Notes: generated by a model from the letters alone, not told the origin. A DNA stretch of 64,000 bases from Nibricoccus sp. (GCA_047602425.1 JASGHG010000001.1:1376001-1440000); one strand, 5' to 3'. Positions 31,660-49,406 are shown, counted from the stretch's first letter. Translations and numbers: made by a program.

Positions 31660-31757
31660 GTTACACAGAGTTCACCAGAGGATCCACAGAGACCACCGAG
31701 AAAACTTGCCCACCTGCTCCGTGACCTCCGTGCCTCCTCTGGTGCCCTCTGTGTAAC
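31660..31757. repeat. Intergenic ~98-bp hairpin element built from CAC(A/C)GAG units
   Basis: GTTACACAGAG...CTCTGTGTAAC terminal inverted repeats with further internal pairing (CACCAGAGGA/TCCTCTGGTG). Confidence 0.7.
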
Positions 31758-31773
31758 AAAAGAAATTTCACAA

Positions 31774-33084: not shown

Positions 33085-33108
33085 TCCCGCGTACAAGTTT
33101 CCTTCACA

Positions 33109-33150
33109 AAACACGCCGCGTTTCCTTCGGAGCGCGGCGTGTTTCTTTTC
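33109..33150 (+). terminator. Intrinsic terminator after sufD
   Basis: AAACACGCCGCG-loop-CGCGGCGTGTTT followed by a T-rich tract. Confidence 0.75.
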
Positions 33151-33173
33151 TAAATTCCACTCGATAAAGCAGC

Positions 33174-33246
33174 TGCGGACACCTGCCCGGAATTTTAACA
33201 ACTATTTCCGCGGGAACGCTGTTTTTCACTTGCGGACACCTGTCTG
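33174..33246. promoter_or_regulatory. Paired TGCGGACACCTG operator-like sites, cassette 1 leader
   Basis: Exact 12-mer at 33174 and 33231 (57-bp spacing), each part of the pseudo-palindrome CGGACA-CC-TGYCYG. Confidence 0.7.
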
Positions 33247-33521
33247 TTAAGCTTCTTAGCACACCTCTCGGCGAGTACCCCCGCTTCGGTTTCCACTGAA
33301 GAACTTGTCGAAAGCTCTTAGTTAGTACCCCAACAACACCCCACCCCTTCAAAGCTCCCTGTTGCAAGGCATCGCATGATGGTTTGTGCAAGCGCGCGTG
33401 CGCGTGCGCACATGCAATCCCGTGGGCCGGCGGCAGGAAAAAATTCAGGCATACACCTGCCCTACCCCTTTCCGTATCAACCTAACCCCGGGAAGAAACG
33501 GAACGTTAAAACAACATGCAA

Positions 33522-34181
33522 ATGCTAACCCACATACACAGCCGCGTTCGATATGCGGTTCTCACCACGGCCCTCGTCGGCCTTTTCAGCGCTGCGCAAG
33601 CTGCCACTATCACGATCACCACCACGATCAACGTCGCGGCCGGTGCAACCTACGATGGCGGCGGCAACACCATCAAGGCGTCAGGAATGGGCGATGGCGG
33701 CCAAGGCGAAGGCCAGAAGCCGTTCTTCAAGCTCAATGCCGGCTCCACCGTCAAGAATGTCATCCTCGCCGCTCCCGGCGTCGACGGCATTCACTACTAC
33801 GGTAACGGCACGATCAACAACGTGACTTGGCAGGACGTTGGCGAGGACGCTTCGACCATCAAATCGGGCGGCACATGCACGATGAGCAGCAGCAAAGGAT
33901 CGTCGGCCTACGATAAGTTCGGCCAATGCAATGCCGCTGCCACCTGGACGCTCCAGAGCGTCACCGAGACAACTTGCGGCAAGGTCATCCGTCAGAACGG
34001 CGGCACGTCCTACACCTGCAAGTTCTACTACAACACGGTGAAGTCGGACAAGTGCAAGGAGGCGATCGGTCGCACCGATTCGTCCACCACGCGCTTCTAC
34101 TACCGCAGCCTGACTGTGACCAACTTCACAGGCAGCAATGGCTGGTGGTATGGACGCTCGTCCCAAGCATCCACCTACTGA
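33522..34181 (+). CDS. Secreted pectate lyase, polysaccharide lyase family 3 (copy 1)
   Basis: Signal ending AQA; GDGGQGEGQKPFF, DGIH, WQDVGEDA, AYDK, GKVIRQNGG, RTDSST as in Bacillus Pel-15-type PL3 enzymes; 219 aa from ATG 33522. Confidence 0.88.
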   Translation: MLTHIHSRVRYAVLTTALVGLFSAAQAATITITTTINVAAGATYDGGGNTIKASGMGDGGQGEGQKPFFKLNAGSTVKNVILAAPGVDGIHYYGNGTINNVTWQDVGEDASTIKSGGTCTMSSSKGSSAYDKFGQCNAAATWTLQSVTETTCGKVIRQNGGTSYTCKFYYNTVKSDKCKEAIGRTDSSTTRFYYRSLTVTNFTGSNGWWYGRSSQASTY

Positions 34182-34210
34182 GCTCCCCAAAGCAGCTTAA
34201 GTAGAACCAC

Positions 34211-34238
34211 GACACGCAGGGCTCCGGCCTTGCGTGTC
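34211..34238 (+). other. Stem-loop directly after pectate lyase 1
   Basis: GACACGCAGGG...CCTTGCGTGTC, no U-tract. Confidence 0.6.
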
Positions 34239-34267
34239 AGTGCCCTTCGGTTCCCAGGAATTTCAAA

Positions 34268-35467
34268 ATGCCCGTTCAATCCACCACCGCCAAAAATTCG
34301 CTTCGCTGGACGACTCTTCAGCTGCTGGCCATTGTGGCGACCAGCGGATTGCTCACTTTTTTTGGCGCCAGAGCGCTGTTCCGCGACGTGGCCTTTCACC
34401 CGTCGTCGGCAAAGTCGGACATCGCTGGCAATTCGACTGGCTTGGCCCATACGAGTCGCAATAACCAGTCCGTAGATTCAATCTCCGGCCACGCCCGCAC
34501 CGACTTTCCCGCCCAATGGACGCAACTCTGCGCGCAAGCGAACACTCCGCAGCGCGACCGCCAACTCGCCGCGTTGATCGAAGAACTCGCCAGGACCGAT
34601 CACAGTCGCGCCTTTTCCCTCGTCGATGCGGAGTCTAATTGGCGGCTTCGTGAGGAATTGCGCGACGCCGCGTTGCGTGGTTGGGCCTCGGCCGATCCCG
34701 ATGCCGCTGGCGACTGGGCGCTTCAGACACGCACCGAAGATCGCGTGCAAGCCGTGTCGGCCGTCCTCGCCGGTGCCGCCGCTCATCCCGAAAGCGCCGT
34801 CAAACTCGCGCTTCGCCTCTGCGCGGCGGACCCTGAGTCCGCAGGCGACTTCGGTCATGCGGCCGTCGCTGCATTATCCGAAAACGGAAACTTCGAATCC
34901 GCTGCCAGGTTTGGCCAGTCCGCCGGCATGGAAAAATATCCCTTTCTCCTCAGATCCGCCTTCTTCCAATGGGCGCGCAACCAGCCCAACAGTGCACTGG
35001 CCGCCGCCCAGCGTATCGAGAATCCCACTACGCGGGAACAAGTCGTCGCCGAGACTCTTGCCGGCTGGGCTTGGGCCGACGCCAAGGCGCTGGCCGAATA
35101 CGCCCGCACGTTGCCCGCCAGTGCCATTCGCGAAAAAGCCTTTGCCGAGGCCCTGCCTCAATGGGTCGAACGGGACCCCGATGCGGCCACAGCATGGATT
35201 AATAAACAGGATGCCGGGCCCGAATTCGACGCGGGCATCGAAACCGTCGCCAATCTCCAATCCATTATCACGGCGCATCCCGATACCGCGATGGCCCTCG
35301 CCGGCAGCATCTCCGATCCCGCCCGTCGCTCTCATGCATTGCGCGCCGTGTTCCGCCAATGGGCCACCAACAACCCCGACGCGGCCCGCGCCTACGTGAA
35401 CAAAGCCGGCGGCACCGCCGACTATGCCTTGCTCATGGACGAATTGAAGGACATGTCGCCGAACTAA
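34268..35467 (+). CDS. Hypothetical membrane-anchored Trp-rich helical-repeat protein (type A, copy 1)
   Basis: N-terminal hydrophobic helix; recurring W-x3-(D/Q/N)P-x-AA-x2-W units; ends ELKDMSPN like 42511..43713. Confidence 0.8.
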   Translation: MPVQSTTAKNSLRWTTLQLLAIVATSGLLTFFGARALFRDVAFHPSSAKSDIAGNSTGLAHTSRNNQSVDSISGHARTDFPAQWTQLCAQANTPQRDRQLAALIEELARTDHSRAFSLVDAESNWRLREELRDAALRGWASADPDAAGDWALQTRTEDRVQAVSAVLAGAAAHPESAVKLALRLCAADPESAGDFGHAAVAALSENGNFESAARFGQSAGMEKYPFLLRSAFFQWARNQPNSALAAAQRIENPTTREQVVAETLAGWAWADAKALAEYARTLPASAIREKAFAEALPQWVERDPDAATAWINKQDAGPEFDAGIETVANLQSIITAHPDTAMALAGSISDPARRSHALRAVFRQWATNNPDAARAYVNKAGGTADYALLMDELKDMSPN

Positions 35468-35510
35468 ACCGTTCTCCCAATAATTTTTCGCCAGCCCATC
35501 GTTTCCCGCC

Positions 35511-36665
35511 ATGCCAATTTCCCCCAATGTGCCACGCTGGAATACCCTCACTGTTGTCAGCAGCGCGGCATTGTCCGCGCTCCTCACCTTCGGCCTCGCT
35601 TGGCTCACTGCCGGAAATTCCACCGGCAAAACCCAACCAAAAACCGTTTCCGTCGCGTCATTTCAAAGCCGCAAGGTTCAGTCTTCCCAGGAAAACTGGA
35701 GCGATTCCTGGCATCAGCTGCAAAAGCAACCCGCCTGTGCCGTTCGCAATAAAGAGCTCGCTGCGATGCTCGAACAACTCGCCCGCACGGATCCCCAACG
35801 TGCCCTCGCGCTCGCCGAAGCTGAATCCAACTGGATTTTGCGCGACGAACTTCTCGACGCCGCCCTGCGCGGCTGGGGCGCCACCGCCCCCGACGCAGCT
35901 GCGGACTGGGCCATCAACCATCGCCTGGACCAACGCATGCGGTACGTCTCCGCCGTACTTTCCGGAGCCGTCGAACAACCCAGCGAAGCCGTGCGGGTCG
36001 CGCTCCGTGTCTGTAAAGCCGATCCCGGTCCCGCCGCGGATTACGGACATGCCTTGATCAACGCCCTCGTCGACAAGGTTGGCTCGTTCGCCGAGGCCAC
36101 CCGTTTCGCCTCCACCGTTGGCACCGACCGCCAGCAATTCCTGCTCGATTCCGCGTACTATCAATGGGCGAAGTACCAGCCGGAACAAGCGCTCGCCTCG
36201 CTAAACCAAATAACAGATCCAAACATCAAGGCTTCCGCTTACGAGGGCATGCTCGCGGGTTGGGCTGCTGCCGATGCCACCAAACTTGCTTCGCTCGCAC
36301 TGTCGATGCCGCCCGGCGAGGATCGTCTGAAGGCTTTCAACGTTGCCCTGCCCAAATGGATCGAGAAAGACCCGACCGCCGCTACCGAGTGGATCGGCAA
36401 TCAGGATCCCAGCCCCGACCTCAACGCCGGCGTCGCCGCCATCGCCACGCTTCCTTCGATGATCGCGCGGAATCCCCTGCTCTCGTTCGATTGGGCCGAC
36501 AGCATCACCGATTCCGCTCAACGCATCATGACGAAGCACGAAATTTTCACCCAATGGGCCCAAAAAGATTTCCCGGCCGCCGTCGAATATGCGCGCAACG
36601 TGAAAAATCCGGACGAACGCGACATGATGACTGAAGCCCTCGCCGGAATGCGCCAGGGCGGATAG
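35511..36665 (+). CDS. Hypothetical membrane-anchored Trp-rich helical-repeat protein (type B, copy 1)
   Basis: Paralog of type A (LARTDP..RAL...AE.NW.LR...AALRGW; C..DP..A.DYGH); N-terminal TM. Confidence 0.8.
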   Translation: MPISPNVPRWNTLTVVSSAALSALLTFGLAWLTAGNSTGKTQPKTVSVASFQSRKVQSSQENWSDSWHQLQKQPACAVRNKELAAMLEQLARTDPQRALALAEAESNWILRDELLDAALRGWGATAPDAAADWAINHRLDQRMRYVSAVLSGAVEQPSEAVRVALRVCKADPGPAADYGHALINALVDKVGSFAEATRFASTVGTDRQQFLLDSAYYQWAKYQPEQALASLNQITDPNIKASAYEGMLAGWAAADATKLASLALSMPPGEDRLKAFNVALPKWIEKDPTAATEWIGNQDPSPDLNAGVAAIATLPSMIARNPLLSFDWADSITDSAQRIMTKHEIFTQWAQKDFPAAVEYARNVKNPDERDMMTEALAGMRQGG

Positions 36666-36684
36666 AACCTCTTTCATTGCCCGT

Positions 36685-38790
36685 ATGCTCGGATCTAAAA
36701 TCACACCGCTCTTTATCGCCCTCGCTTCCCTCTTTCTCGTTGGTTCGTCATTTGCCGGCGATCCGCCGCCAGCCGTTGCGCCCGCACCGGCGACCAGTTC
36801 GCCGTTTCCGCTGCACAAGGCGGTTCAGGATGGCGACGCAGCAGCGGTCCGCTCGCTCCTGCGCACCCGTCCCGAACTAGTCCGCGCCGAGGACCCCGAT
36901 GGCGTCACGCCGCTGCTGGTTGCCGCGATGTTTGGCCGCGTGGAAATCGTGCGCCAACTTCTCGACGCCGGCGCTCCCGTCAATGCGGCGACCCGCGTCG
37001 ATGGCTCCACGCCGCTCTGCGTTGCCGCCTACCACGGTCATATCGAAACCGCGCGCCTGCTGATCGATGCCGGTGCCAAACTCGAAGTCCGCACCACCAA
37101 CAGCAATTCGACCCCGCTGCTCCTCGCCTCCGCCGGTGGCCAGCCTGCGATGATCGCATTTCTCAAGGAACGAGGCGCCAAAGATGACGTACTTGGCGCC
37201 GGCAATCTCAGCCCGCTCGCGACGGCTGCCGTCGAGGGCCAGACCGAAGTGGTCAAAAGCCTCGCGAAACCCGGACAGAATATCGATGCCCGAAACGAAT
37301 TCGGGCAAACGCCTCTCATGCTCGCCGCACGCGAAGGTCGCATGTCCGTGGTGCAAGTTCTCCTCGAACAAGGCGCCGATGTCACCGCCAAGGACCAGGA
37401 AGGCCTGACCGCACTCCACCTCGCCGCGAAGGAGGGCCATCACGACGTCGTCAGCGTCCTCATCGCCAACAAGGCATCCGTGAATGAACGCGATTTACGC
37501 GGGCGCACTCCTTTGTTCCTGGCGGCTTGGTATGGTTATGCGAATGCCGCCCGCGTGCTCTGCGAGCACAATGCCGAACTTAACGCTCGCGATGAAAAAA
37601 ATCGCACCCCGCTCTACATGGCCGCGTCCGACAATTCCGAAGCCGCCGCCTTCGTGCTCCTAGAAAAAGGCGCGTCGGTTGAAGACAAAATCGTCAATGG
37701 CCGCGACACGCTGTGCCCTCTCCGCACCGCCGCCTACGAGGGATATCTCGGAATCCTCAAGGCCCTTGTGGCCAAAGGGGCCGACGTAAACTGCAAACGT
37801 CTCGACGACGGTTTCACTCCGATCATTTTCGCTGCGCAGGGCGGGCATCTCGACGCCATCAAACATCTCGCCTCCAAGGGCGGCCGACTTGAGGAAACCA
37901 CCAAGGATGGACGCACCGCTCTCTGGCTTGCCGCCGAAAACGGCCATCTCGCCATCGTAAAATATTTCGCCGAAAAGAAATTCGATCTCGAAGTCCGCGA
38001 TGGCAACGGTCGCACCCCGCTTTTCGTCGCTGCGGAAATCGGTCATCACGCCGTTGTCCGCTATCTCCTCGAACAGGGCGCTAATCCCGAATCCCTTTCA
38101 AAAGATGGCCGCACCCCTTTGATGGTCGCTGCCAAGGGCGGTCATTTCGAGTGCGTCGACGCGCTCCTCGAAAAAGGCGCCAACATCGCCGTCCGCAGTC
38201 AAAATGGTCTCTCGCCGATTCTCATGGCGAGCGGAGCCGATGGACCGCACTACATTCTACCGCCAGAGGGTTCGTATCAAAACACGTTGAAACTCCTTCT
38301 CGAAAAAGGGGCGAATCTCGATGACCAAACGCCAGCCCACGAGTCCCCGCTTTTTCTCGCCGCGGAATCTGGTCGCCTTGAAATCGTCAAGGCCCTGCTC
38401 GAACTCGGCGTAAAGGTCGACGCCACCGACCTTGAAGGTCGCACCCCGCTTTATGCCGCCGCCCGACGAGGGAAAGCCGCCATTGTCCGTGCACTCCTAG
38501 ACAATGGCGCGAATCCAAATGCCACCATGATGCTGGGCGAATGCCCGCTCTACGTCGCTGCCGAGGCTGGCCACATCGAAGTCGTCAAGGCGCTTCTCGA
38601 TATGGGCGCCCAACATACCCTAACCACGCAACAGGGCATAACTCCCATTCTCATCGCGCACCAAAACGGCTACAAAGCCATCGTGCGCATGCTCGAACGC
38701 CGAGGCGCAAAATTGCCCGCGGCCGCACCCGCAGCGGCCAGCGCCACAACACAACCTTCAACCACCGCCAACACGGCTAAAGGTTCCTGA
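36685..38790 (+). CDS. Secreted long ankyrin-repeat protein (copy 1)
   Basis: Signal peptide ending SFA; many G-x-TPL-x2-AA-x2-G repeats. Confidence 0.92.
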   Translation: MLGSKITPLFIALASLFLVGSSFAGDPPPAVAPAPATSSPFPLHKAVQDGDAAAVRSLLRTRPELVRAEDPDGVTPLLVAAMFGRVEIVRQLLDAGAPVNAATRVDGSTPLCVAAYHGHIETARLLIDAGAKLEVRTTNSNSTPLLLASAGGQPAMIAFLKERGAKDDVLGAGNLSPLATAAVEGQTEVVKSLAKPGQNIDARNEFGQTPLMLAAREGRMSVVQVLLEQGADVTAKDQEGLTALHLAAKEGHHDVVSVLIANKASVNERDLRGRTPLFLAAWYGYANAARVLCEHNAELNARDEKNRTPLYMAASDNSEAAAFVLLEKGASVEDKIVNGRDTLCPLRTAAYEGYLGILKALVAKGADVNCKRLDDGFTPIIFAAQGGHLDAIKHLASKGGRLEETTKDGRTALWLAAENGHLAIVKYFAEKKFDLEVRDGNGRTPLFVAAEIGHHAVVRYLLEQGANPESLSKDGRTPLMVAAKGGHFECVDALLEKGANIAVRSQNGLSPILMASGADGPHYILPPEGSYQNTLKLLLEKGANLDDQTPAHESPLFLAAESGRLEIVKALLELGVKVDATDLEGRTPLYAAARRGKAAIVRALLDNGANPNATMMLGECPLYVAAEAGHIEVVKALLDMGAQHTLTTQQGITPILIAHQNGYKAIVRMLERRGAKLPAAAPAAASATTQPSTTANTAKGS

Positions 38791-38836
38791 ACTCTCGCGC
38801 CTTGGCCTAAGCTTGCCTGTGCCCGTTGAGGCGGTC

Positions 38837-41185
38837 TCACCGCAAACGTTCGAGGTTCTGTCGCGCCGGAAGATAATCCGGCTTCAACTGAAGTGCCTTC
38901 TCGTAACAATTCCGCGCCTCGTCAGACCGGCCCAACTGCACATAAACGTTGCCGAGTAAATAATGAGCCTTCGGCGAATCCGGTTTTAGCCGCACCGCCT
39001 CGGCCAGATGCGGCAGCGCGGCTCCGGACTTGCCTTGCATCGCGAGCATCGAGCCAAAATTCGTGCGCGACTCGACATGCTCGGGTCGAAGCCGAACCGC
39101 TTCCTCCCCGTAATGCATCGCCTCATCCAGTCGTCGCAGCTTCAGGTATGTGTTGCCCAGGTTGAAACAGACATCAGCCGAACTCGGCATGAGCCGGTAA
39201 GCCGCCTCGTATTGCACGGCCGCGCCGGCCAGATCGCCCTGCGCAGCGAGTGCATTGCCCAGGTTGTTTCGCGCTTCGAAATAGTCCGGCGTCAATCGAA
39301 GTGCCTCGCGAAAACAATCGGCCGCCTCCGCAATCCGCCCTTGTGCCTGTCGCGCGATACCCAGGTTCAAATGCGCCTCGGCAAAAGTCGGCTTGAGTCG
39401 CAACGCCTGTTCATACTCGCGGATCGCCTCGTCAGTTTTGTCCGACGCAAAAAGAACAATTCCGAGATTGCTGTGCGCCTCGGCATTTTCCGGCTTCAAT
39501 CGAATCGCCTCACGACCATGCGCGATCGCTTCCTCAAAACGGCCGGCCACAGGAAGCACAATGCAAAGATTGCTGTGCGCATCCGCATACTCCGGCCTTC
39601 GCTTCGCCGCGCCCTCGATCAGTTTCACGGCTTCCGCCGTCCGCCCCATCGAGTGGAAAAGCATGCCAAGGTTATTCGCCGCTTCCGGATCTTCGGGCTT
39701 GATCCGCAACGCCGCCTCGAAAGCACTCCGCGCCTCCTCCATCTTCCTCTGCGAAAGCAACGCAATACCAAGATTATTGTGCGCATCGAAGTACCCGTCA
39801 TCGAGTTTGAGCGCGGCTTTGTACCGGTCCAATGCCTCATCGGTCCGGCCCGCTTCGAACAGGACCCGCCCATGTGCACAAATGGCACGCGCATTCGATG
39901 GACAGTCGAGCGCCGTCTTGGACCAAAGTGTCAGTTCGTCTTTGAAGAGCGCGTTGCGATTGACGGTCATCACACCAAAAATAACCGCCACCGCCAGACC
40001 GACTGGCCAAACCCATCGGCCTGCCCACCGGTAACCCACCAGCACGAGCAAGAGCAGCACCGGCGCGAGGGGCAGATACATCCGGTGTTCCGCCATCGTC
40101 TGCGTCGCGATCGGCACCACGCTCGAACTCGGTGCCAGAATGATAAAAAACGCCAGCGCCGCCACGCTCCACAACCGCCCTTTCAAAAACCCCGCCACTG
40201 CACCGCAAAACACCGCGATCAAGAACAGCCCCTGCCAGAGCACCGCGCCGGGTTGAGTCACCAGTCCCCGTCCATAGTCGAAGACGAGCGGATTTGGCCA
40301 AACCACCAGCTTGAGGTAAATGACGATTGCCTTGCATTGCGTCAAAAGATACGACCACCAGGAAGCAGTGCCAAAACCCGCCGTCCCGCTTCGCTGATCC
40401 GCCTGCAAAATCAGCCAGCCCTGCAAAAGCCAGCTCGCCAACAAGCCGGCGTAAAGCCAGCGCCGGCGGCGCCATATCTCTGAAAAGCTCGCCGCCATAA
40501 GCGTTCGGTCGATGAGCAAAATCACCAGCGGCGCGGTCGCCGCGACTTCCTTCGTACCCACTCCGAACCAAACCGACGCAACCGCTCCCCACGCCCAAAA
40601 CTTCTCCGTCCGCCCGTTCTCCGCCGCACGCAAAAAGCAATAGACCGCCAGCAAGTAGAACAATGCCATCAAGGCCTCCACTCGCTGTACGATATAGGTG
40701 ACCGATTCCGTCTGCAATGGATGCACCGCCCAAAGCAGTGCGACCAGCCCCGCCAGCGGCGTCGCCGCCTTCCCGAAACAGCCGGCCAGCCTCGGCAGCA
40801 GCAAAATCCGCCGCACACCGCCAAACAGCGCCAGAGCCGCCGCCCCGTGAATCAGCACATTAACCAAGTGATACCCCCATGGCCTCAATTCGCCAAAAGC
40901 GTAGTTGGCCGCAAATGTAACGTTTGCCACCGGACGCCCGCTGACCGTGGTATCGAGTGGTGGGCGCAAAACCGCGCCCGGATTTCGCCACTCGCGCAGG
41001 GTCGGGTTGTTGATGATCGTCGGCCGGTCATCGAAAACCATTACCCCTTGAAAAGAGTTATGGTAAACAGAAGCTACTGCGACGATCAGGCAAAGCGCAA
41101 ACAACCACGTCTGCCAGCAAACGCGCGTGCCTGCTTCGCACGGGTTCACCGCAGACGCACGGGGTGAAATTCCTGCGTCAGACAT
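38837..41185 (-). CDS. TMTC-like GT-C membrane glycosyltransferase with 10 TPRs (copy 1)
   Basis: MVFDD, GRPV, YHLVNVLIH, HPLQTESVTYIVQR, AEHRMYLP, multiple TMs, ten 34-aa TPRs. Start set at ATG 41185. Confidence 0.82.
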   Translation of the reverse strand: MSDAGISPRASAVNPCEAGTRVCWQTWLFALCLIVAVASVYHNSFQGVMVFDDRPTIINNPTLREWRNPGAVLRPPLDTTVSGRPVANVTFAANYAFGELRPWGYHLVNVLIHGAAALALFGGVRRILLLPRLAGCFGKAATPLAGLVALLWAVHPLQTESVTYIVQRVEALMALFYLLAVYCFLRAAENGRTEKFWAWGAVASVWFGVGTKEVAATAPLVILLIDRTLMAASFSEIWRRRRWLYAGLLASWLLQGWLILQADQRSGTAGFGTASWWSYLLTQCKAIVIYLKLVVWPNPLVFDYGRGLVTQPGAVLWQGLFLIAVFCGAVAGFLKGRLWSVAALAFFIILAPSSSVVPIATQTMAEHRMYLPLAPVLLLLVLVGYRWAGRWVWPVGLAVAVIFGVMTVNRNALFKDELTLWSKTALDCPSNARAICAHGRVLFEAGRTDEALDRYKAALKLDDGYFDAHNNLGIALLSQRKMEEARSAFEAALRIKPEDPEAANNLGMLFHSMGRTAEAVKLIEGAAKRRPEYADAHSNLCIVLPVAGRFEEAIAHGREAIRLKPENAEAHSNLGIVLFASDKTDEAIREYEQALRLKPTFAEAHLNLGIARQAQGRIAEAADCFREALRLTPDYFEARNNLGNALAAQGDLAGAAVQYEAAYRLMPSSADVCFNLGNTYLKLRRLDEAMHYGEEAVRLRPEHVESRTNFGSMLAMQGKSGAALPHLAEAVRLKPDSPKAHYLLGNVYVQLGRSDEARNCYEKALQLKPDYLPARQNLERLR

Positions 41186-41438
41186 TGGGGTATTGGGGTG
41201 ACTAAGAGCACAGCGAAACGGCTGCCCGGAGCAAAACAAAATGACACCGATCGTCTTCCGTTTTTCCCGCGCCGGATTCAATTTTCGCCACAACTTAAAC
41301 CACTCATTACCGCCAACTCCATTTTTTCCAACGCCAGCCGCCGCGCTGGCCGAAGCACACGCACGCTTCACAAAACACGCGTCGTTTTCCTGCAAAAGAG
41401 AGGCCCGTTCTTACATAAATCTCGCTCTGAAAAGCAAC

Positions 41439-41511
41439 TGCGGACACCTGCCCGAAATTTTAACAACTATTTCCGCACGAACGTTGTTTTTCACTTGCGG
41501 ACACCTGTCAT
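41439..41511. promoter_or_regulatory. Paired TGCGGACACCTG operator-like sites, cassette 2 leader
   Basis: Exact 12-mer at 41439 and 41496 (57-bp spacing), the same geometry as cassette 1. Confidence 0.7.
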
Positions 41512-41779
41512 CTGGGCTTCTTACCCAGTCCTTCCGACGAATACCCCCGTTTCAGCCACCCACTGAAAATTTGTCGAAAGTCTTAGTTACAACCCCAACC
41601 CCACCCAACCCACCTACTGTTGTTAAGCATGCTTTTTCGTGCGCACCTCTGTCGAGTGTGCCTGCGTTTAGCCTGTTCGACAACGGCCGGATGTTCTTGG
41701 TCTGAGCTCCCACACCCCTCTCCGTAAAATCCTAACCCCAGGACTAACGGAATATCAGACCCAAAACATAACAAGGAAA

Positions 41780-42439
41780 ATGAAAACCCACATACACAGC
41801 CGCGTTCGCTTCGCGGTTCTCACTGCGGCCCTCGTCGGCCTTTTCACTGCTGCTCAAGCCGCCACCGTAACCATCACCACCACGATCGTCATCGCCGCTG
41901 GCGCCACCTATAATGGCAACGGCAACACGATCAAAGCGTCGGGCATGGGCGACGGCGGTCAGGGCGAAGGTCAGAAGCCATTCTTCCGCCTCAACGCGGA
42001 TTCCTGGCTCAAGAACGTCAAGCTCGCCGCCCCCGGTGTCGACGGCTGCCATTTCTATGGCAATGGCACGATGAACGAGGTCACCTGGCAGGACATCGGC
42101 GAAGACGCTCACACTGAAAAATCCGCGGGCAACTGCTGGGTTTCCGGTGGCGCGGCTTACAACGGTGCTGACAAGTGCGGCCAGGTTAACGCCGCTGGTT
42201 GGCTCACGCTGTACTACTTCTACACCAGCGTGTGCTTGAAGAACATCCGTCAAAACGGTGGCACCACCTACAAGTGCCAGTTCTACTACGACCACAACAC
42301 CGCCAACAAGACTGGCGAAGCCATTGGTCGCACCGACTCGTCCACGACGACGTTCGGCGTTCGTGGCATGACCGTGACGAGCTTCACGGGCAGCAAGGGC
42401 TGGTGGTATGGCCGCGATTCTCAGGCCTTCACCTACTAA
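41780..42439 (+). CDS. Secreted pectate lyase, polysaccharide lyase family 3 (copy 2)
   Basis: 219 aa, collinear with copy 1; GDGGQGEGQKPFF, WQDIGEDA, SGGAAY..ADK, KNIRQNGGTTYK. Confidence 0.88.
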   Translation: MKTHIHSRVRFAVLTAALVGLFTAAQAATVTITTTIVIAAGATYNGNGNTIKASGMGDGGQGEGQKPFFRLNADSWLKNVKLAAPGVDGCHFYGNGTMNEVTWQDIGEDAHTEKSAGNCWVSGGAAYNGADKCGQVNAAGWLTLYYFYTSVCLKNIRQNGGTTYKCQFYYDHNTANKTGEAIGRTDSSTTTFGVRGMTVTSFTGSKGWWYGRDSQAFTY

Positions 42440-42469
42440 TCCTTCGGCCTAAAAGCTGATCGTTTATTG

Positions 42470-42498
42470 CGCCTGGAGCCAAACAACGGCTCCAGGCG
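42470..42498 (+). other. Stem-loop directly after pectate lyase 2
   Basis: CGCCTGGAGCC-aaacaac-GGCTCCAGGCG. Confidence 0.65.
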
Positions 42499-42510
42499 TC
42501 TTCGTCTGTT

Positions 42511-43713
42511 GTGCCCGACGGTCAACGGCACAATTTTTCCCCACGTCACTCCGTTCACTCCATGCGCTGGTCCTCTCGCACGCTCATTGCCGTCGTCGCT
42601 TTCTCCGCCATCGCAGGCATACTGGTCGGTCTCAAAACCGCGCCCGCCAGCCCATCCCGCCCAACCCGCGCACAAGCTGCCCGGCCAGCCGGCAGTGCCG
42701 TCGCTTCATTGGACCAAACTACTGAAAACCTCCAAACGACTGGCGGCTCCTGGAATGAGCGCTGGCGCAATATTCTTTCCGGCACCCCCACTCCTGCCCG
42801 CACCCGCGACCTCGCCGCCCTGATTGAGGAACTTGCAAAGACCGACCCCAAGCGCGCTCTCGAACTCGCCGCCGCCGAAACCAACTGGCGCCTCCGCGAC
42901 CTTCTCCGCAATGCCGCCCTCCGAGGATGGGCCTCGGTCGAACCCATCGCCGCCGCCAACCATGCCCTCACCATTCGGCCTGAGGAACGCCGTTCCGCCG
43001 TCGAGGCGGTCATGCAAGGCGCCGCCGCCAATCCTCCCGAAGCGGTCAAAACCGCCCTCCATCTTTGCAAATCCGACACCGAAGCGGCCGGCGATTATGG
43101 CCACTACACCATCGCCGCCCTGGTCGATGTTGGCGCGTTCAACGAGGCCGTGCAATTTGGCAACCAGATCGGTACCGACAAATATCCCTTCCTTCTCAAG
43201 TCCGCCTTTTTCCAGTGGTCCCGCAACCAACCGCAAGAGGCATTAGCCGCCGTCGACTCCATTAAGGATCCGCTTCTGAAAGCCCAGGCTTATGGAGAAG
43301 CAATCTCCGGCTGGGCTTGGGCCGATGGGAAATCGGTCGCCGAGTACGCCCTCACACTTCCCTCCGGCTCCTCGCGCAACGACGTCCTCACCGAGGCTCT
43401 TCCGCGCTGGGTCGAGAAAGATCCCGTCGCGGCGACCGAGTGGATCAACAAGCATGATTCCGGCCCCGAATTCGACGCAGGCATTGAAGCCGTCGCCAAT
43501 CTCCAGTCTCTCATTCAAACCCGCCCCGCCAATGCGCTGGAACTCGCCGGCAACATCTCGGATCCCGGCCGCCGTTCCCATGCCATGCGCGCCATCTTCC
43601 GCCAGTGGGCCACCACCGACGTCACCGCCGCCAAACGCTACGTCGACAGCACTGCAAATGCCACGGATCGCGCCCTGCTTGCCGACGAACTCAAGGACAT
43701 GTCGCCCAACTAA
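42511..43713 (+). CDS. Hypothetical Trp-rich helical-repeat protein (type A, copy 2)
   Basis: Aligns with 34268..35467 (KYPFLL.SAFFQW, GWAWAD, GPEFDAGIE, ELKDMSPN). Start is GTG 42511 or ATG 42562. Confidence 0.8.
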   Translation: MPDGQRHNFSPRHSVHSMRWSSRTLIAVVAFSAIAGILVGLKTAPASPSRPTRAQAARPAGSAVASLDQTTENLQTTGGSWNERWRNILSGTPTPARTRDLAALIEELAKTDPKRALELAAAETNWRLRDLLRNAALRGWASVEPIAAANHALTIRPEERRSAVEAVMQGAAANPPEAVKTALHLCKSDTEAAGDYGHYTIAALVDVGAFNEAVQFGNQIGTDKYPFLLKSAFFQWSRNQPQEALAAVDSIKDPLLKAQAYGEAISGWAWADGKSVAEYALTLPSGSSRNDVLTEALPRWVEKDPVAATEWINKHDSGPEFDAGIEAVANLQSLIQTRPANALELAGNISDPGRRSHAMRAIFRQWATTDVTAAKRYVDSTANATDRALLADELKDMSPN

Positions 43714-43736
43714 ACGGTTCAGCGCCGCCCCGCCAC

Positions 43737-44894
43737 ATGCCAAACGCACTTTCCCTCCCTCGCTGGTCAACCAAAACCCTTGGCCTCGCCGCCGTCCTCA
43801 CGGCGATTTTCGCCGGCCTGATCACGCGCCAGATTGCCGCCAAAACCATCCCTAACCTCCAAGTTTCCATTGCCTCCGCCCGCGTCCGCCTCGATGGCAC
43901 CAGCAGCGCCCGGAAACATTGGGAGGATACTTGGTCACAGACCAGCCGCCAGCCCGCCTGTCCCGCGCGCAACCGCAACCTCGAGGCCATGCTGGAGGAG
44001 CTTGCCCGTACCGATCCGCAGCGAGCGCTCGCACTCGCCATGGCGGAAGGCAACTGGCTTCTCCGCGACAAACTTCGCAACGCCGCCCTTCGCGGTTGGG
44101 GCGCCGTTGCCCCCGACGCCGCCGCCGACTGGGCCATGGCGCAGCCCGAATTGGGCAATCGACTCTTCTGCGTTCAGGCAGTCCTCAGCGGCGCGGTTGA
44201 GAAACCCGACGACGCCGTCCGCGTCGCGCTCCGCGTTTGCGAGGCCGATCCGCTTCCCGCCGGCGATTATGGCCATGCCGTCATCAACGCCCTTATCGAC
44301 AAAGCCGGCTCTTACGAAGCCGCGACCAAGTTTGCCCTCGCCGCAACCAAAGTCGACCGCCAATCGTACCTCGTCGATTCCGCCTTCTATCAGTGGGCGC
44401 AAAACCAACCCGAACTCGCCGTCGCCAAACTTTCCGAAATCAAGGACCCTAAAGTCCGCGATTCCGTCATGAAGGGCGTTGTCGAGGGCTGGGCCGACGC
44501 CGATGCCAAGAGTCTCGCCACCTACGCCCAGGCCATGCCTCCCGGCGAAGACCGAACCAAATTTATGAGCATCGCCCTCATGCAGTGGGGCAATAAAAAC
44601 CCCGAGGACACCATGCAGTGGATCAACCAGTTTGAACCCCACCCCGATTTCGACAAAGGTTTCGCCACGCTCGCCCTCGGAGAAACCGTTCTCAAAACCC
44701 GTCCCGAGATGGCCATTGAGATGACCGAGTACATCACCGATCCCGCGCAGCGCACGCTTACTCGCGACAACGCGTTCTGGCGCTGGGCCCTTCGCGATCC
44801 CGAAGGCGCCCGCAAATACGCCGAGTCGGTCCAGAACCCCGAGTACCGCGCCTCCATGCTCGACGATCTTACCCGCCTTCCCAAAGACCAGTAA
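43737..44894 (+). CDS. Hypothetical Trp-rich helical-repeat protein (type B, copy 2)
   Basis: Aligns with 35511..36665 (PRW, QPAC, LARTDPQRALALA, DYGHA.INAL.DK, MPPGEDR). Start at ATG 43737. Confidence 0.8.
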   Translation: MPNALSLPRWSTKTLGLAAVLTAIFAGLITRQIAAKTIPNLQVSIASARVRLDGTSSARKHWEDTWSQTSRQPACPARNRNLEAMLEELARTDPQRALALAMAEGNWLLRDKLRNAALRGWGAVAPDAAADWAMAQPELGNRLFCVQAVLSGAVEKPDDAVRVALRVCEADPLPAGDYGHAVINALIDKAGSYEAATKFALAATKVDRQSYLVDSAFYQWAQNQPELAVAKLSEIKDPKVRDSVMKGVVEGWADADAKSLATYAQAMPPGEDRTKFMSIALMQWGNKNPEDTMQWINQFEPHPDFDKGFATLALGETVLKTRPEMAIEMTEYITDPAQRTLTRDNAFWRWALRDPEGARKYAESVQNPEYRASMLDDLTRLPKDQ

Positions 44895-44908
44895 GCAACC
44901 CGCCCGCC

Positions 44909-46990
44909 ATGCCGTTTGCTGCTCGCTCCCCGTCTTCCGACTTCCGACCCCCGTCCTCCGGCCTGCGCCTTCTGGCCTCCAGCCTCTGGCTTCTGGCTTC
45001 ACTCCTCCTTGCGCAGAGTATCCAAGCCTCCGATACGCCGGCGCCCGTCGTTTACCCTTTCCACCGAGCCGCGCAAAACGCGGACCTCGTCACGCTCCGC
45101 GCTCTCCTTCGCCTCGATCCACTCGCCGTCAATGCCGCAGACCCCAATGGCGTCACGCCGCTTTTCGTCGCCGCACGTCTTGGCCATGTTCCCGTCGTCC
45201 GCCTCCTGCTCGAAAATGGCGCGTCGCCTCACGCTCGCACCAATGACGGCTCCACACCGCTTTGCATGGCCGCCTATTTTGGTCATCTTGAAATCGCACG
45301 CCTCCTCCTCGACAAAGACGCCGATCTCGAAGCCCAAACTGTCGATGGCGCAACCCCGCTCACCCTGGCCGCCGCCAATGGACAGTCGGAAATGGTCAAA
45401 TGGCTGCAGTCCAAAGGCGCCCGAACCGACGCCCTCACCGCCAATAGTTCGACCGCACTCGCCCAAGCCGCTCTCGAAGGTCACGCCGATGCGGTCAAAA
45501 CCCTCCATGAAACCGGCGCCGCGGTGGATACTCGCGACGAAAAAGGCCAGACGCCTCTCATGCTCGCCGCCCGCGAAGGTCGCAACGAGGTTGTTACGCT
45601 TCTCATCGAACAAGGTGCCGATCCTAACGCCACCGACAAACAGGGTCTCACCGCGCTTCACCAGGCGGCCAAGGAAGGCCGCCCCGAAACCGTCAGGCTC
45701 CTCCTCAAACATGGGGCCAAAATCGACCGCCGCGACAAACGCGGCCGCACACCTCTCTTCATGGCTGCCTTCTATGGCTATGCCAATTCCGCTGCCGCTC
45801 TCTGCGATGCCGGAGCCGACGTCGACGCGCGCGACGAACTCAATCGCACCCCGCTTTTCATGGCCGCTAATGATGGCTCCGAAGCCGCTGCCCTCGTCCT
45901 TCTCGAAAAAGGCGCCAGCGTGGAAGATAAAATCATCAACGGCAAAAGCACCCTATCCCCGCTTCGCATTGCCGCTTTCGATGGCTACATCGGGATCCTC
46001 AAAGCACTCATCGCCAAAGGTGCCGACGTAAACCAAAAACGCCTCGATGATGGCTTTACCCCGCTTCTGTTCGCCGCCCAAGGCGGCCATCTCGATGCCG
46101 TCAAAATCCTGATGTCCGCCGGTGCAAAATCCGACGCCACCGCCAACGACGGTCGCAATGCCCTTTGGCTCGCTTCGGAAAACGGTCATGTCGCGATCGC
46201 CAAATTTTTTCTCAAGCAGGGACTTTCCGTCGAAGCCCGCGATGCCCAGGGTCGCACTCCTCTCTTCCGCGCCGCCGAAGTCGGCTACTCAGCCGTCGTC
46301 CGTTTTCTCCTCGCCAACAATGCAGCCGTCGATGCTCCCGACCGCGACGGCCGCACCCCGCTCGCCTTGGCCGCAAAAATCGGCCAGGTGGAAACCGTCA
46401 CCGCTCTTCTCGAAAACAAAGCCGATCCAAACGCCACCAGTAAAGATGGCTTGACTCCACTTCTGATGGCCACCGGCGCCGCCGGCCCGCATTTCATTGT
46501 CCCACCCGAAGGTTCCTATCTCAAGGTCTTCCACCTTCTCCTCGAAAAAGGCGCTCGTCTTGACGCACAAACTCCCGAGGGACACACTCCGCTGCATCTG
46601 GCAGCCCAGGATGGACGCCTCAACGTGGTCAAAGCTCTGCTCGAACTCAAAGCCAACCTCGAACCCATCGACAACGAGAATCGCACTCCTTTGTACCTTG
46701 CTGCCAGTTCAGGACACGCCCCCGTCGTCGCCTTCCTGCTCGAAAAAGGCGCTTCCCCTGACACCGTCGGCAAGTCCGGTGAAAGCGCCCTTTTCACCGC
46801 CGCTCGAAACGGTCATTTCCTCGCCACCAAGGCGCTCGTGGACAAGGGAGCGAAAATCGATACGCCCACCCCTCAAGGCGAAACCCCTGTCTCGATCGCT
46901 AAAAAACACGGTCACCGCCCCATCGCCCGCCTGCTTGAGCGCCGCGTCGCCGGCGCTGGCAGTGCCAGTCCCGTCAAGTCTTCGCCATGA
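44909..46990 (+). CDS. Secreted long ankyrin-repeat protein (copy 2)
   Basis: Collinear with 36685..38790, including the EDKI.NG and GPH.I.PPEGSY inserts. Confidence 0.92.
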   Translation: MPFAARSPSSDFRPPSSGLRLLASSLWLLASLLLAQSIQASDTPAPVVYPFHRAAQNADLVTLRALLRLDPLAVNAADPNGVTPLFVAARLGHVPVVRLLLENGASPHARTNDGSTPLCMAAYFGHLEIARLLLDKDADLEAQTVDGATPLTLAAANGQSEMVKWLQSKGARTDALTANSSTALAQAALEGHADAVKTLHETGAAVDTRDEKGQTPLMLAAREGRNEVVTLLIEQGADPNATDKQGLTALHQAAKEGRPETVRLLLKHGAKIDRRDKRGRTPLFMAAFYGYANSAAALCDAGADVDARDELNRTPLFMAANDGSEAAALVLLEKGASVEDKIINGKSTLSPLRIAAFDGYIGILKALIAKGADVNQKRLDDGFTPLLFAAQGGHLDAVKILMSAGAKSDATANDGRNALWLASENGHVAIAKFFLKQGLSVEARDAQGRTPLFRAAEVGYSAVVRFLLANNAAVDAPDRDGRTPLALAAKIGQVETVTALLENKADPNATSKDGLTPLLMATGAAGPHFIVPPEGSYLKVFHLLLEKGARLDAQTPEGHTPLHLAAQDGRLNVVKALLELKANLEPIDNENRTPLYLAASSGHAPVVAFLLEKGASPDTVGKSGESALFTAARNGHFLATKALVDKGAKIDTPTPQGETPVSIAKKHGHRPIARLLERRVAGAGSASPVKSSP

Positions 46991-47610
46991 CCTCTTTCAT
47001 CCTCCGGCTTCTGGCTTCCGGCCTTTGTCTTTTGGCCTCCGGTCTCCTTGCGGCCGATCCACTGCCGGGCGAGACAGCCCTTCATGCCGCCGCGCGCGCG
47101 GGCGACATCGACGCCGTGCGTTTACTTCTCGACAAAGGTTCGCCTATCGATGTCCGCAGCAAACGCCTTGAAACGCCCCTCTTCTTCGCCGCCGCCAACG
47201 GTCACGCCAAAATCGTCAGCCTGCTCGTCGATCGCCTCGCTGGCGTTAATATCACCGACTACGAGGGTCGCACGCCCCTCATCGCCGCCACTCAAAACAA
47301 TCATCTCGAAACCGTCGTCATCCTTCTCGACAATGGCGCCAATCCCAACGCCAACATGGGTTCCGGCGAGTCTCCCATGTATTTCGCGGTGAAAAACGGT
47401 AATCTGGAAATTATGAAGGCGCTCTACGAAATGGGCGCTAACCTCACGACACTCAATAAAGATGGGGAATCCCCGCTCTCCATCGCCCGCAAACTCGGCA
47501 ACAAGGAGATCCTCGCTTTTCTCGAAAAAAACAACGCCCGCATTCCCCCTCCGCCTACGGGAGAAAAACCCGCCGACGGTCCGCCTCGCGGTAAAGAACC
47601 CAAAGAATAG
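46987..47610 (+). CDS. Secreted short ankyrin-repeat protein (only in unit 2)
   Basis: Signal peptide plus about 5 ankyrin repeats; ATGA overlap with the upstream stop. Confidence 0.88.
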   Translation: MTSFILRLLASGLCLLASGLLAADPLPGETALHAAARAGDIDAVRLLLDKGSPIDVRSKRLETPLFFAAANGHAKIVSLLVDRLAGVNITDYEGRTPLIAATQNNHLETVVILLDNGANPNANMGSGESPMYFAVKNGNLEIMKALYEMGANLTTLNKDGESPLSIARKLGNKEILAFLEKNNARIPPPPTGEKPADGPPRGKEPKE

Positions 47611-47635
47611 TCTCCTCCCCATTGCATCGCGTCCG

Positions 47636-49294
47636 TCAAGGCGCGGTTTCTTTTTTCGCTCGCACAATCTCTGTCAGATGTCGCCGCGCGTCATCCAACT
47701 CGGGTTTCAACCGGAGTGCTTCACGGAAGCATTCCAACGCTTCGTCTTTCCGACCCACCGCCGCCAAAATCATGCCACGCGTATCAACCAATTCGGCAAT
47801 GCCTCCTGCCGTCGCCACCACGTGATCGATTTCTCGCAAAGCGTCCGGAGCGCGTCCCGCCGCCAACAGTGCATTCGCGTAGTTGTTGCGCACCTCAACC
47901 GAACCTGGCACCTGCGCTAAAACTTTTTCGTACTCTGTCACCGCCTCGCTGGCATGGCCTTTTTCCGCCAAAGCCAGCGCAAGGTTGTTGCGCGCTCTCC
48001 AGTTTTCCGGCCGCTTTTTCACCGTGTCGGACCAGATCGAAATCTTTGTCGCGTAATCCGCGTTCCGCCGCACCGACAGCCCGCCCCAAACCAGGCAAAC
48101 GATCGCACACGCGAAAAATACCCAGCGCCCGAACCACTTATTTGCTGTAAAAACTGCCACGACCACAACCGCGGCAAGCGGCAGGTACATGCGATGCTCA
48201 GCCGCCGTTTGTGTCAGCACCGGGACCACGCTCGAACTCGGCGCCAGAATCGCAAGGAACCAAAAGCCTGCCACACCCCACGACGAACGCCGCCAAATCG
48301 CAAAAAGCGTACCAGCCGCCAGCGCCGCCAGTCCTAGCGCCTCCCACCGCACTTTCGCCAATCCTTCCACCAGCGCGTTACCATGATCGAAAATCAGCGG
48401 TGTCGGCCAAACCACCAGCTTGAGGTAATGTACAATCGCCCCGCATTGCGTCAGCAGATATTGCCATGACGAAGCCGTGCCAAACCCAGCCGTACCTCCA
48501 CGGTTTCGGGCACCAACCACAAGCGCCGCCAGCACCACCCACGACAAGGCCATTCCTGCATACATCCATTTTCTCCGCATCCATGCCTCACGAAACGTTG
48601 CCGCCACCCAGGTGCGGTCGGCCAGCAACACCACGAGCGGCGCCGATACTATGATTTCCTTGCAACCTGCGCCGACCAGACAAGCTGTTACCGCAGCCAT
48701 CTGCCATCGCCAAGCCGATGGCGATTCCACGCTGCGCAAAAAACAATACAGCGTCAGTAAATAGCACAGCCCTGCCAGTGACTCGACGCGTTGGACCACG
48801 TAGGAGACCGACTCCGTTTGCAGCGGATGCACCGCCCAAAGTCCCGCCACCGCCAGCGCCAGCCACACTTCGTCGCGTCTAAAACGTCCAGCCCATGCCG
48901 GCAATCGCGCCAGCCGCCGGACCACGCCAAACAACACCAGCGCGGCGCCCGCATGTATTGTAATATTCACTACATGATAGCTCCACGGAGCCAGCCCGCT
49001 GATCGCGTAATTCACCGCGAATGTAGCGTTCGCCAGTGGACGCCCCAAAGTCGTCGCGTCGGTCGGGGGCGAAAATATTTCCGCCAAACCTCGCTCCGCA
49101 CGGATTGAGCGATTGTTCAAAATCGTCGGCTCGTCGTCGAAGACGAATTCCCCGCCTACTCCGTTGGCGAAAACCGCCACCACGATCAGCGCCAACACGG
49201 CCAGCGAACACCAGATCGTCCACGATTTCCCATTCGTGGGCACGACATTCGACGCAGTCGCGCCGGTTTGTTCTGATTGGGGTTGGATCAGCAC
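47636..49294 (-). CDS. TMTC-like GT-C membrane glycosyltransferase with 3 TPRs (copy 2)
   Basis: FVFDD, GRPL, YHVVN..IH, HPLQTESVSYVVQR, AEHRMYLP. Start uncertain (GTG 49294 chosen to avoid overlapping sufT). Confidence 0.8.
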   Translation of the reverse strand: MLIQPQSEQTGATASNVVPTNGKSWTIWCSLAVLALIVVAVFANGVGGEFVFDDEPTILNNRSIRAERGLAEIFSPPTDATTLGRPLANATFAVNYAISGLAPWSYHVVNITIHAGAALVLFGVVRRLARLPAWAGRFRRDEVWLALAVAGLWAVHPLQTESVSYVVQRVESLAGLCYLLTLYCFLRSVESPSAWRWQMAAVTACLVGAGCKEIIVSAPLVVLLADRTWVAATFREAWMRRKWMYAGMALSWVVLAALVVGARNRGGTAGFGTASSWQYLLTQCGAIVHYLKLVVWPTPLIFDHGNALVEGLAKVRWEALGLAALAAGTLFAIWRRSSWGVAGFWFLAILAPSSSVVPVLTQTAAEHRMYLPLAAVVVVAVFTANKWFGRWVFFACAIVCLVWGGLSVRRNADYATKISIWSDTVKKRPENWRARNNLALALAEKGHASEAVTEYEKVLAQVPGSVEVRNNYANALLAAGRAPDALREIDHVVATAGGIAELVDTRGMILAAVGRKDEALECFREALRLKPELDDARRHLTEIVRAKKETAP

Positions 49295-49406
49295 GTTTCC
49301 ACGACAGCAAATCGCTTCTTGTTCGCAAGAAAACACCTCTGCGGCGGCCAAAAACTCCCTTCGCTCCGCAGTTGCGCGCCGCACGGACTCGCATTCAATG
49401 CCCAAC

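Follow-up and report, generated by a model that had tools for sequence, protein, structure and literature searches.

Secreted pectate lyases and related enzymes are commonly assumed to need no help from other proteins. Other secreted enzymes are served by dedicated helpers: in the lipase foldase Lif, a flexible linker connects an N-terminal helix to an all-helical domain that binds the client, and Lif is encoded 3' of the gene for the secreted enzyme it serves, while the Acinetobacter chaperones LipB and CpaB are encoded beside their substrates. Lipase foldases are inner-membrane-anchored periplasmic proteins (PMC13381987, PMC7046727), substrates of Acinetobacter type II secretion need specific membrane-associated chaperones (PMC4713064), and AnkB is required for KatB activity (PMC12754779, the title of whose reference 56 places AnkB in the periplasm). 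Here we describe a locus of Nibricoccus sp. (GCA_047602425.1; a complete genome of 5.16 Mb, labelled G000 in comparisons with relatives) in which each of two pectate lyase genes of family PL3 is followed by genes for two related membrane-anchored repeat proteins, A and B, and for an exported ankyrin-repeat protein. All positions are those of the window, by which we mean the whole 64,000-nucleotide stretch analysed (JASGHG010000001.1:1376001-1440000).

What is new at this locus is the A/B protein family, its systematic pairing with secreted pectin-degrading enzymes, and the PL3-A-B-ankyrin cassette together with the duplication of the whole set. The lyase, the ankyrin repeats, the glycosyltransferase encoded alongside them (a GT-C membrane domain followed by tetratricopeptide repeats, TPR) and the principle of a secreted enzyme with a dedicated membrane-anchored helper are of kinds already known. 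By analogy with the helpers above, our tentative preference, to which we give somewhat less than an even chance, is that A and B are putative membrane-tethered periplasmic chaperones or escorts, each dedicated to an enzyme, with the ankyrin protein as a second helper. The two tandem units of ~8.2 kb lie at 33.1-41.4 kb and 41.4-49.3 kb, between the end of sufD (33084) and a sufT-like gene, and open reading frames (ORFs) and Pfam matches give the same order in each, namely PL3 lyase, A, B, an ankyrin protein of ~700 aa and a convergent GT-C/TPR gene (GT1 or GT2):

33143..33258, plus strand: leader of unit 1, with two TGCGGACACCTG 12-mers (33174-33185 and 33231-33242)
33516..34181, plus strand: PL3 pectate lyase of unit 1 (PF03211; 221 aa, with a Sec signal peptide that ends in AQA)
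34208..34242, plus strand: GC-rich hairpin in the gap between the lyase gene and A1 (z -3.2)
34268..35467, plus strand: A1, predicted membrane-anchored alpha-solenoid protein (399 aa; AlphaFold2 model; without a Pfam or NCBIfam family)
35511..36665, plus strand: B1, paralog of A1 (384 aa; 44% identity to A1)
36685..38790, plus strand: Ank1, exported ankyrin-repeat protein (701 aa; signal peptide; Ank_2 E 1e-147)
38837..41185, minus strand: GT1, membrane domain of predicted GT-C fold with a long TPR domain (782 aa; TPR families)
41408..41523, plus strand: leader of unit 2, in the spacer from which GT1 and the second lyase gene diverge (12-mers at 41439-41450 and 41496-41507)
41780..42439, plus strand: PL3 pectate lyase of unit 2 (219 aa; PF03211)
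42469..42499, plus strand: GC-rich hairpin in the gap between the lyase gene and A2 (z -4.9)
42562..43713, plus strand: A2 (383 aa)
43737..44894, plus strand: B2 (385 aa)
44909..46990, plus strand: Ank2, exported ankyrin-repeat protein (693 aa; Ank_2 E 1e-147)
46987..47610, plus strand: small exported ankyrin protein, in unit 2 only (207 aa; Ank_2 E 7e-43)
47636..49294, minus strand: GT2, predicted GT-C fold with a short TPR domain (552 aa)

These gene maps rest on homology first, and a few neighbour genes may be mis-called (the codon-usage caller merged some starts). A preliminary description of the window had reported two ~8.2-kb units of identical architecture, with a conserved leader, a stem-loop after the lyase gene and five genes kept intact despite divergence, and had inferred that the partners of each lyase form an extracytoplasmic set. 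ORFs, Pfam and inter-unit identity agree with it on two units of like architecture and five shared, intact genes, but not on complete identity, as unit 2 carries a sixth gene (the 207-aa ankyrin protein) and GT2 has 552 residues against 782 in GT1. Leader and stem-loop were recovered in both units, and every part has an export signal or a membrane anchor; Sec-type signal peptides can be read on both lyases and all three ankyrin proteins, and tandem ANK repeats are present in both long forms and in the 207-aa form.

Both lyases score far above the PF03211 cut-off of 25 bits (121.1 bits in unit 1, 104.4 bits in unit 2), and they are the only matches to this family in the genome. Among solved PL3 structures the lyases match 4ew9 at E 1.4e-46 (residues 31-204) and 1ee6 at E 3.7e-43. 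The motifs GMGDG...QKP, DGIH, WxDVGEDA, DK..Q.NA and IRQNG are present in both copies; D133-K134, K156 and R159 (unit 1 numbering), among which we take the calcium and catalytic Lys-Arg residues to lie, are invariant among 8 cassette lyases.

A1, B1, A2 and B2 match no Pfam family (E<=0.01) and no NCBIfam family (E<=0.001). None of 84 database homologues (E<=1e-5) has a name, all being unnamed or hypothetical proteins; source names on homologues read Opitutaceae and Nibricoccus, and in a protein atlas A and B are similar only to clusters from Verrucomicrobiota that have no assigned family. For A1, the AlphaFold2 model (mean predicted local distance difference test, pLDDT, 90) places a transmembrane helix at residues 16-39, a disordered segment at 40-78 and an all-helical repeat solenoid at 80-396; the disordered linker is rich in Ser, Thr, Pro and Ala (22-33% Ser+Thr across the A and B linkers), and a Trp is conserved in every repeat, with W139, W299 and W310 invariant. 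Against 48,161 solved chains the model came closest to HEAT, ARM and PPR solenoids, at Z <=10.6, a level generic for repeat proteins. On this model, A and B are predicted to be inner-membrane-anchored, periplasm-facing scaffold proteins of an undescribed family. At 41-44% identity to each other, A and B are therefore paralogs. A fusion of an A/B protein to an extracytoplasmic function (ECF) sigma factor, hinted at by a structure row of the atlas, was rejected, as two adjoining ECF sigma-like proteins showed no similarity to the family (probability <1%), and no fused longer forms of A or B were found, which is weak evidence.

With a family profile built from 55 A/B members, we searched 151 genomes of the same family, spanning 63 genera, and found members in 31 genomes and 16 genera (E<=1e-20); phylum-wide, 43 of 301 genomes gave matches (E<=1e-15). 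Tandem A-B pairs occur in seven of the 151 genomes, which represent three genera: G000 (twice), G004, G007, G067, G084, G124 and G155. The order PL3-A-B-ankyrin is kept in all eight of their units. Thirteen metagenome loci were recovered with a cassette-type A profile; PL3 lies directly upstream of A in 10 of the 10 that include upstream DNA, and the ankyrin gene follows in all 6 that reach far enough. Phylogenetic trees resolve A and B as two sister clades, each containing all seven genomes, and both paralogs were therefore present in the ancestral cassette and have been kept since before it spread. Beyond the ankyrin gene the units vary: most carry a small second ankyrin gene (orthologs of the 207-aa protein are found in G004, G067, G084 and G124) or, in genus g4, encode a longer ankyrin protein of 925-934 aa. 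The GT-C/TPR gene is present in 3/8 genomic units (both in G000 and the one in G004, a single genus) and in 0/5 metagenome cassettes that extend past the ankyrin gene. The conserved core is PL3-A-B-ankyrin and not five genes, and the glycosyltransferase is a genus-specific addition outside it. The co-occurrence search proposed in the preliminary description upholds four of its five members, with lyase, A, B and ankyrin travelling together in all eight genomic units and in the metagenome loci, and removes the glycosyltransferase, which is one of 16 paralogs in the genome.

The duplication of the whole set is old. Amino-acid identity between units 1 and 2 is 69% for the lyase, 53% for A, 51% for B, 57% for the ankyrin protein and 43.5% for the glycosyltransferase, and direct DNA repeats between the units are spaced 8106-8265 nt apart. 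Nei-Gojobori estimates of the ratio of nonsynonymous to synonymous divergence (dN/dS) between the units, which the preliminary description had suggested computing, are 0.27-0.36 for all five genes, rough values at a dS of ~1-1.6, near saturation; all five are under purifying selection. A recent duplication or an assembly artefact is ruled out by proteins that differ by 31-56% between units and by a dS of ~1 or more. In the trees, unit 2 is orthologous to the only unit of G004 (its lyase is 89% identical to that copy, GT2 60%), and unit 1 sits on a long branch for all four proteins. The unit 1 lyase carries 25 substitutions at positions invariant across the 7 other cassette lyases, the unit 2 lyase 1, and the specificity of the unit 1 enzyme may have shifted after duplication.

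The A/B family extends well beyond PL3. We annotated the neighbours of 41 loci from 20 genomes, comprising essentially all near-full-length profile matches and leaving out partial, weaker and long multi-module relatives, by BLAST to Pfam-checked references and by Pfam itself. Counting the 16 cassette genes apart, this gave a single-copy set of 36 family members (E<1e-40) in 29 loci. For 27 of the 36, the gene immediately ahead in the same co-directional run encodes a carbohydrate-active or carbohydrate-binding protein with a signal peptide, although in 2 of these 27 pairs the gap is 650-1020 nt and an uncalled gene may intervene. The most frequent partners are PL1 lyases, alone or in a PL1-pectinesterase operon (9), Pel9A-like beta-helix proteins (5), PL11 rhamnogalacturonan lyases (5) and SGNH esterases with carbohydrate-binding modules (CBMs; 3); a pectinesterase, a GH43-AbfB protein, another beta-helix protein, a CBM6 protein and a ricin-lectin protein have one A-like member each. 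A further 3/36 adjoin a PL4 or GH12 gene in another arrangement. The lyase families in question occupy only ~27 gene-sized places in the 5.16-Mb genome, and the adjacency of A-like and enzyme genes is therefore far beyond chance. The family tree, moreover, groups by partner enzyme across genera, with a clade of PL1-pectinesterase partners from 6 genomes, a PL11 clade from 4 and a clade of Pel9-like partners with a neighbouring FKBP gene from 3. The preliminary description had asked whether other cargo enzymes replace the lyase. The A/B family does accompany PL1, PL9-like, PL11, esterase and GH43 genes as well, and the notion of a private set for each lyase was too narrow.

Two kinds of neighbour recur at these loci. 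A gene for an FkpA-type FKBP prolyl isomerase (461-490 aa) adjoins the Pel9A-like/A-like pair at L016, L021 and L040, two of which also have a GT-C/TPR gene. PL1-pectinesterase operons encode a conserved signal-peptide protein of ~370-400 aa without a Pfam family (L015 6812-7918, L017 7410-8528, L020 5725-6870, L032, L033, L038), located directly upstream of the A-like gene in 2 of these 6 loci (L015 and L017).

Under the chaperone or escort reading, the lyase would be exported by Sec and captured in the periplasm by the A/B solenoid, which would hang from the inner membrane on its flexible linker of ~40 residues, hold or fold the enzyme, keep it in or bring it to a secretion-competent state, and pass it on towards secretion, with the exported ankyrin protein assisting as a second helper. 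Passage across the outer membrane would then follow by a secretion route, and the genome has three secretin genes. Support for this reading comes from the conserved four-gene core, the long retention of both paralogs, the clades that follow the partner enzyme, the anchor-linker-solenoid architecture, the hairpins between enzyme and helper genes and the recurrent position behind genes for pectin enzymes; the prolyl isomerase, a folding-related neighbour of the Pel9-like/A-like pair in 3 genomes, may be a further sign. Several observations weigh against it. A steric foldase specific to one fold is hard to square with partner enzymes that have five or more unrelated folds; A and B share no sequence likeness with Lif and no specific fold likeness among the matches listed, and an alpha-solenoid fold alone is uninformative on function. 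Nor is the pairing complete or strictly one to one: 6/36 single-copy members have unrelated or unknown neighbours, PL1-pectinesterase operons have one A-like gene per 3-5 enzyme genes, and within G000 A-like genes cluster with only ~5/15 PL1 places and 1/3 PL11 places. The loci, moreover, are not independent, with ~17 context types common to related genomes, and, among 18 loci of distant relatives from elsewhere in the phylum, 11 have mostly housekeeping-type, non-CAZyme neighbours (CAZyme, carbohydrate-active enzyme).

Hairpins between enzyme and helper genes bear on the proportions in which the proteins are made. A GC-rich hairpin of 12-15 bp occupies the gap between lyase gene and A gene in both units, and G004 has a hairpin of another sequence at the same place (z -4.0). 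A stable hairpin between enzyme and A-like gene was found in 3/3 PL3 units tested and at 10/12 further loci (z -2.8 to -5.7; the exceptions are L019 and L016), and it would hold the helper below the level of the enzyme. This is relevant to an alternative that we regard as improbable but as having some claim, in which A and B are membrane tethers or scaffolds that bind the enzyme in stoichiometric amount and keep it on the periplasmic side of the inner membrane, the ankyrin protein extending the scaffold and no chaperone turnover taking place. The anchor-linker-solenoid architecture and the adjacency of the enzyme genes fit tethering equally well, and the partner-specific clades fit it too. Retention in equal numbers sits poorly, however, with hairpins that suggest less helper than enzyme, and with single A-like genes that can serve a multi-enzyme operon; endo-acting lyases, furthermore, need their polymer outside the cell.

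A second alternative, to which we assign a small probability, makes all five proteins one system in which the GT-C/TPR protein O-glycosylates the lyase, the Ser/Thr-rich A/B linkers or the tail of the ankyrin protein as a built-in part of maturation. GT1 and GT2 each combine a multi-pass N-terminal domain with C-terminal TPR (TPR_11 at E 1e-68 in GT1, TPR_2 at E 7e-13 in GT2), and all of 43 sequences keep an Asp pair after the first helix, D53-D54. For the N-terminal domain, the AlphaFold2 model has a pLDDT of 91, and 20 of its first 23 Foldseek rows are GT-C transferases (PMT, STT3/AglB, ArnT, EmbB, AftB), albeit weak rows (E 1e-3 to 2.5e-2, TMq 0.34-0.50) of which none reaches 0.001; by sequence, the glycosyltransferases matched no solved chain. 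DUF1736 gave no Pfam match at E<=1 in the N-terminal domains of GT1, GT2, the G004 copy and one paralog, and PMT_2 scored 21.1 bits in the GT1 domain (cut-off 26.1), did not match GT2, and reached 29-31 bits in paralogs at the locus L054. We accept from the model that GT1 and GT2 combine a predicted GT-C fold with TPR but do not file them as TMTC-type, so that of the earlier label 'TMTC/DUF1736-like' the fold and the TPR stand and DUF1736 does not. The wider family is very large (>7000 proteins at E<=1e-10, with TPR protein and protein O-mannosyl-transferase among the source names, and PF13231 in some). Both GT genes score poorly in a codon model derived from the genome's long ORFs (a score of 55 for 852 codons and of 12 for 622), and the plus strand stays C-rich across both.

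Several observations favour such an integrated system: the glycosyltransferase gene was duplicated with the unit and kept in G004, its product has the predicted GT-C fold with the invariant DD motif, and the A/B linkers offer abundant Ser and Thr. At L016, L034, L040, L041 and L050, a GT-C/TPR gene is likewise no more than a few genes away from an A-like gene. At L054 (G000:C1:2539000-2557000), four GT-C/TPR genes, three with PMT_2 above its cut-off, are interleaved with two long A-family proteins (783 and 765 aa, with 5-6 solenoid modules and the same N-terminal anchor); no lyase gene was found among the seven genes scanned there. A link between the GT-C/TPR and A families is possible. An integral role is nevertheless hard to reconcile with the lack of the gene in the cassettes of 5/7 genomes and in 5/5 metagenome cassettes that extend past the ankyrin gene. 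Of the 16 paralogs, 2 are in the cassettes, 4 in the one cluster at 2.54 Mb and 10 not near any A-family gene; the DUF1736 search was negative, and by identity and dN/dS the glycosyltransferase is the least conserved member of the cassette.

We think it similarly doubtful that the A/B solenoids bind pectic oligo- or polysaccharide in place of the enzyme, serving degradation clusters in periplasmic capture or sensing. The Trp conserved in each repeat could suit such a role, as could the ability of one copy to serve a multi-enzyme operon and the presence of TonB-dependent receptor, LacI regulator or ECF sigma genes in some clusters. The cytoplasmic tail, however, has only ~15 residues and no evident signalling output, the ECF sigma proteins at two loci are without similarity to the A/B family, and the clades track enzyme type even among enzymes that act on the same polymer. 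At 7 of the 18 distant loci, all in one family of the same order, the relative lies directly 3' of a gene for a YkuD L,D-transpeptidase of 182 aa, and a transpeptidase does not amount to a glycan system. YkuD enzymes are periplasmic. The A-family proteins at these loci (L070-L075 and L077) are 412-471 aa long, and NusG-like and Bac_transf genes are found nearby.

It is very unlikely, in our judgement, that A and B are inhibitors that hold the lyase inactive in the envelope, sparing uronic-acid polysaccharides of the cell itself. Adjacent genes and clades specific to a partner would suit enzyme-inhibitor pairs, and A and B do evolve faster than the enzymes (53% identity for A against 69% for the lyase); yet the partners include esterases, GH43 enzymes and lectin or CBM proteins that call for no immunity, an inhibitor would be expected in at least equimolar amount, against which the hairpins argue, and nothing shows that the cell makes a susceptible polymer. 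We give hardly any credence to mere historical adjacency or operon hitch-hiking within the lineage, with A, B and the ankyrin protein unrelated in function to the neighbouring enzymes, since, even though one family of related genomes supplied the loci and unrelated genes adjoin six of the single-copy members, there are ~17 different enzyme contexts, pairs have been kept across genera while synonymous sites approached saturation (dS 0.8-2 for the cassette copies), and the set was duplicated as a whole and then maintained by purifying selection.

Sequences upstream of the lyase genes may point to a shared regulation. The two leaders are 84% identical over 116 nt, and each contains two copies of TGCGGACACCTG, 57 nt apart; the 12-mer, which has the palindromic core CGGACAnnTGTCCG, is also conserved in the G004 leader. 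It occurs 5 times in the whole genome, four of these within the two cassette leaders, and the unit 1 leader is likely to be an operator or promoter region. The TGCGGACACCTG sites may define a small regulon for the products of the lyases. The fifth copy (L055, ~7357) lies 5' of a gene for a GFO/IDH/MocA oxidoreductase with a twin-arginine translocation (TAT) signal; a Laminin_G_3 gene and a member of the Glyco_hydro_88 family come after it. The sole Rfam match between 32.5 and 50.5 kb was at chance level (E 0.78), and the leader matches no known RNA family. The cassette is likely transcribed on its own because a strong terminator-like hairpin lies 3' of sufD, within flanks that are arranged as follows:

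29095..33084, plus strand: sufC, sufB and sufD, upstream flank (Pfam ABC_tran and SUFBD_core; flank also found in relatives)
33109..33144, plus strand: terminator-like hairpin of 16 pairs with a T run, 3' of sufD
49398..49952, plus strand: sufT-like gene (FeS_assembly_P), downstream flank (89.5% identity to the G004 copy)

The cassette is inserted within this suf Fe-S cluster across the relatives (L013, L014, L023-L026), with sufT 3' of it in 7/7 genomes and sufD 5' in 6/7, and no functional tie to Fe-S assembly is evident. Elsewhere in the window, positions 914-20558 hold hybrid histidine kinases and an ordinary-looking chemotaxis set (a methyl-accepting chemotaxis protein, CheW, CheR, CheB and a CheA-like protein), together with a 682-aa protein without a Pfam family at 11809-13857.

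A bolder version of the chaperone or escort reading, which we hold to be possible but on balance unlikely, is that Verrucomicrobia have an unrecognised class of inner-membrane-tethered solenoid escorts, one per secreted polysaccharide-degrading enzyme, and that the PL3 cassette is a multi-part periplasmic maturation machine. An A/B heterodimer would be joined in it by a giant exported ankyrin protein and, in one genus only, by a GT-C/TPR glycosyltransferase, and a beta-helix lyase would depend on the machine for its folding, modification or transfer. If dedicated escorts of this kind exist, they would account for some of the cases in which Verrucomicrobial CAZymes fail to express in other hosts, add a family to the short list of substrate-specific periplasmic chaperones (Lif, CpaB) and give a first function to a nameless protein family present in 31/151 Opitutaceae-family genomes. 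They would also provide a duplication amenable to study, in which all the helpers diverged along with their enzyme. Among the papers searched, none joins ankyrin, pectate lyase and Verrucomicrobia, and titles and the opening parts of abstracts on Opitutaceae and pectate lyase hold nothing on the cassette.

Compared with described systems, each component has a recognisable counterpart. The lyases share PF03211, the conserved motifs and a match at E 1.4e-46 to 4ew9 with the PL3 pectate lyases of Caldicellulosiruptor bescii (4ew9/3t9g) and Bacillus (1ee6), and differ from them in that their genes are accompanied by dedicated accessory genes and that the unit 1 copy has strongly diverged. GT1 and GT2 have in common with PMT and the eukaryotic TMTC1-4 a multi-pass N-terminal domain, a DD motif after the first helix and C-terminal TPR, but lack DUF1736, fall below the PMT_2 cut-off and belong to a large bacterial family. 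In the KatB-AnkB pair, too, an exported ankyrin-repeat protein shares an operon with an enzyme, the catalase KatB, whereas the ankyrin protein here has ~700 aa (925-934 aa in genus g4) and is accompanied, besides the lyase, by two solenoid proteins. The Acinetobacter chaperones resemble A and B in a membrane-associated and, for A and B putatively, substrate-dedicated role; the protein families are unrelated, and type II secretion would be the presumed route here. The likeness to Lif/LipH of Pseudomonas and Burkholderia, already drawn in the preliminary description, fits the modelled A/B architecture and the gene order, since both have a membrane anchor, a linker, a helical periplasmic domain and a gene behind that of the enzyme. 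It is a likeness and not membership: A and B have no Pfam match, and Lif is absent from the fold matches listed, an absence that excludes nothing. The putative clients of A and B also differ from those of Lif, being polysaccharide lyases, esterases and hydrolases of several folds, and the PL3 cassette brings two paralogous solenoid proteins and an ankyrin protein to its enzyme.

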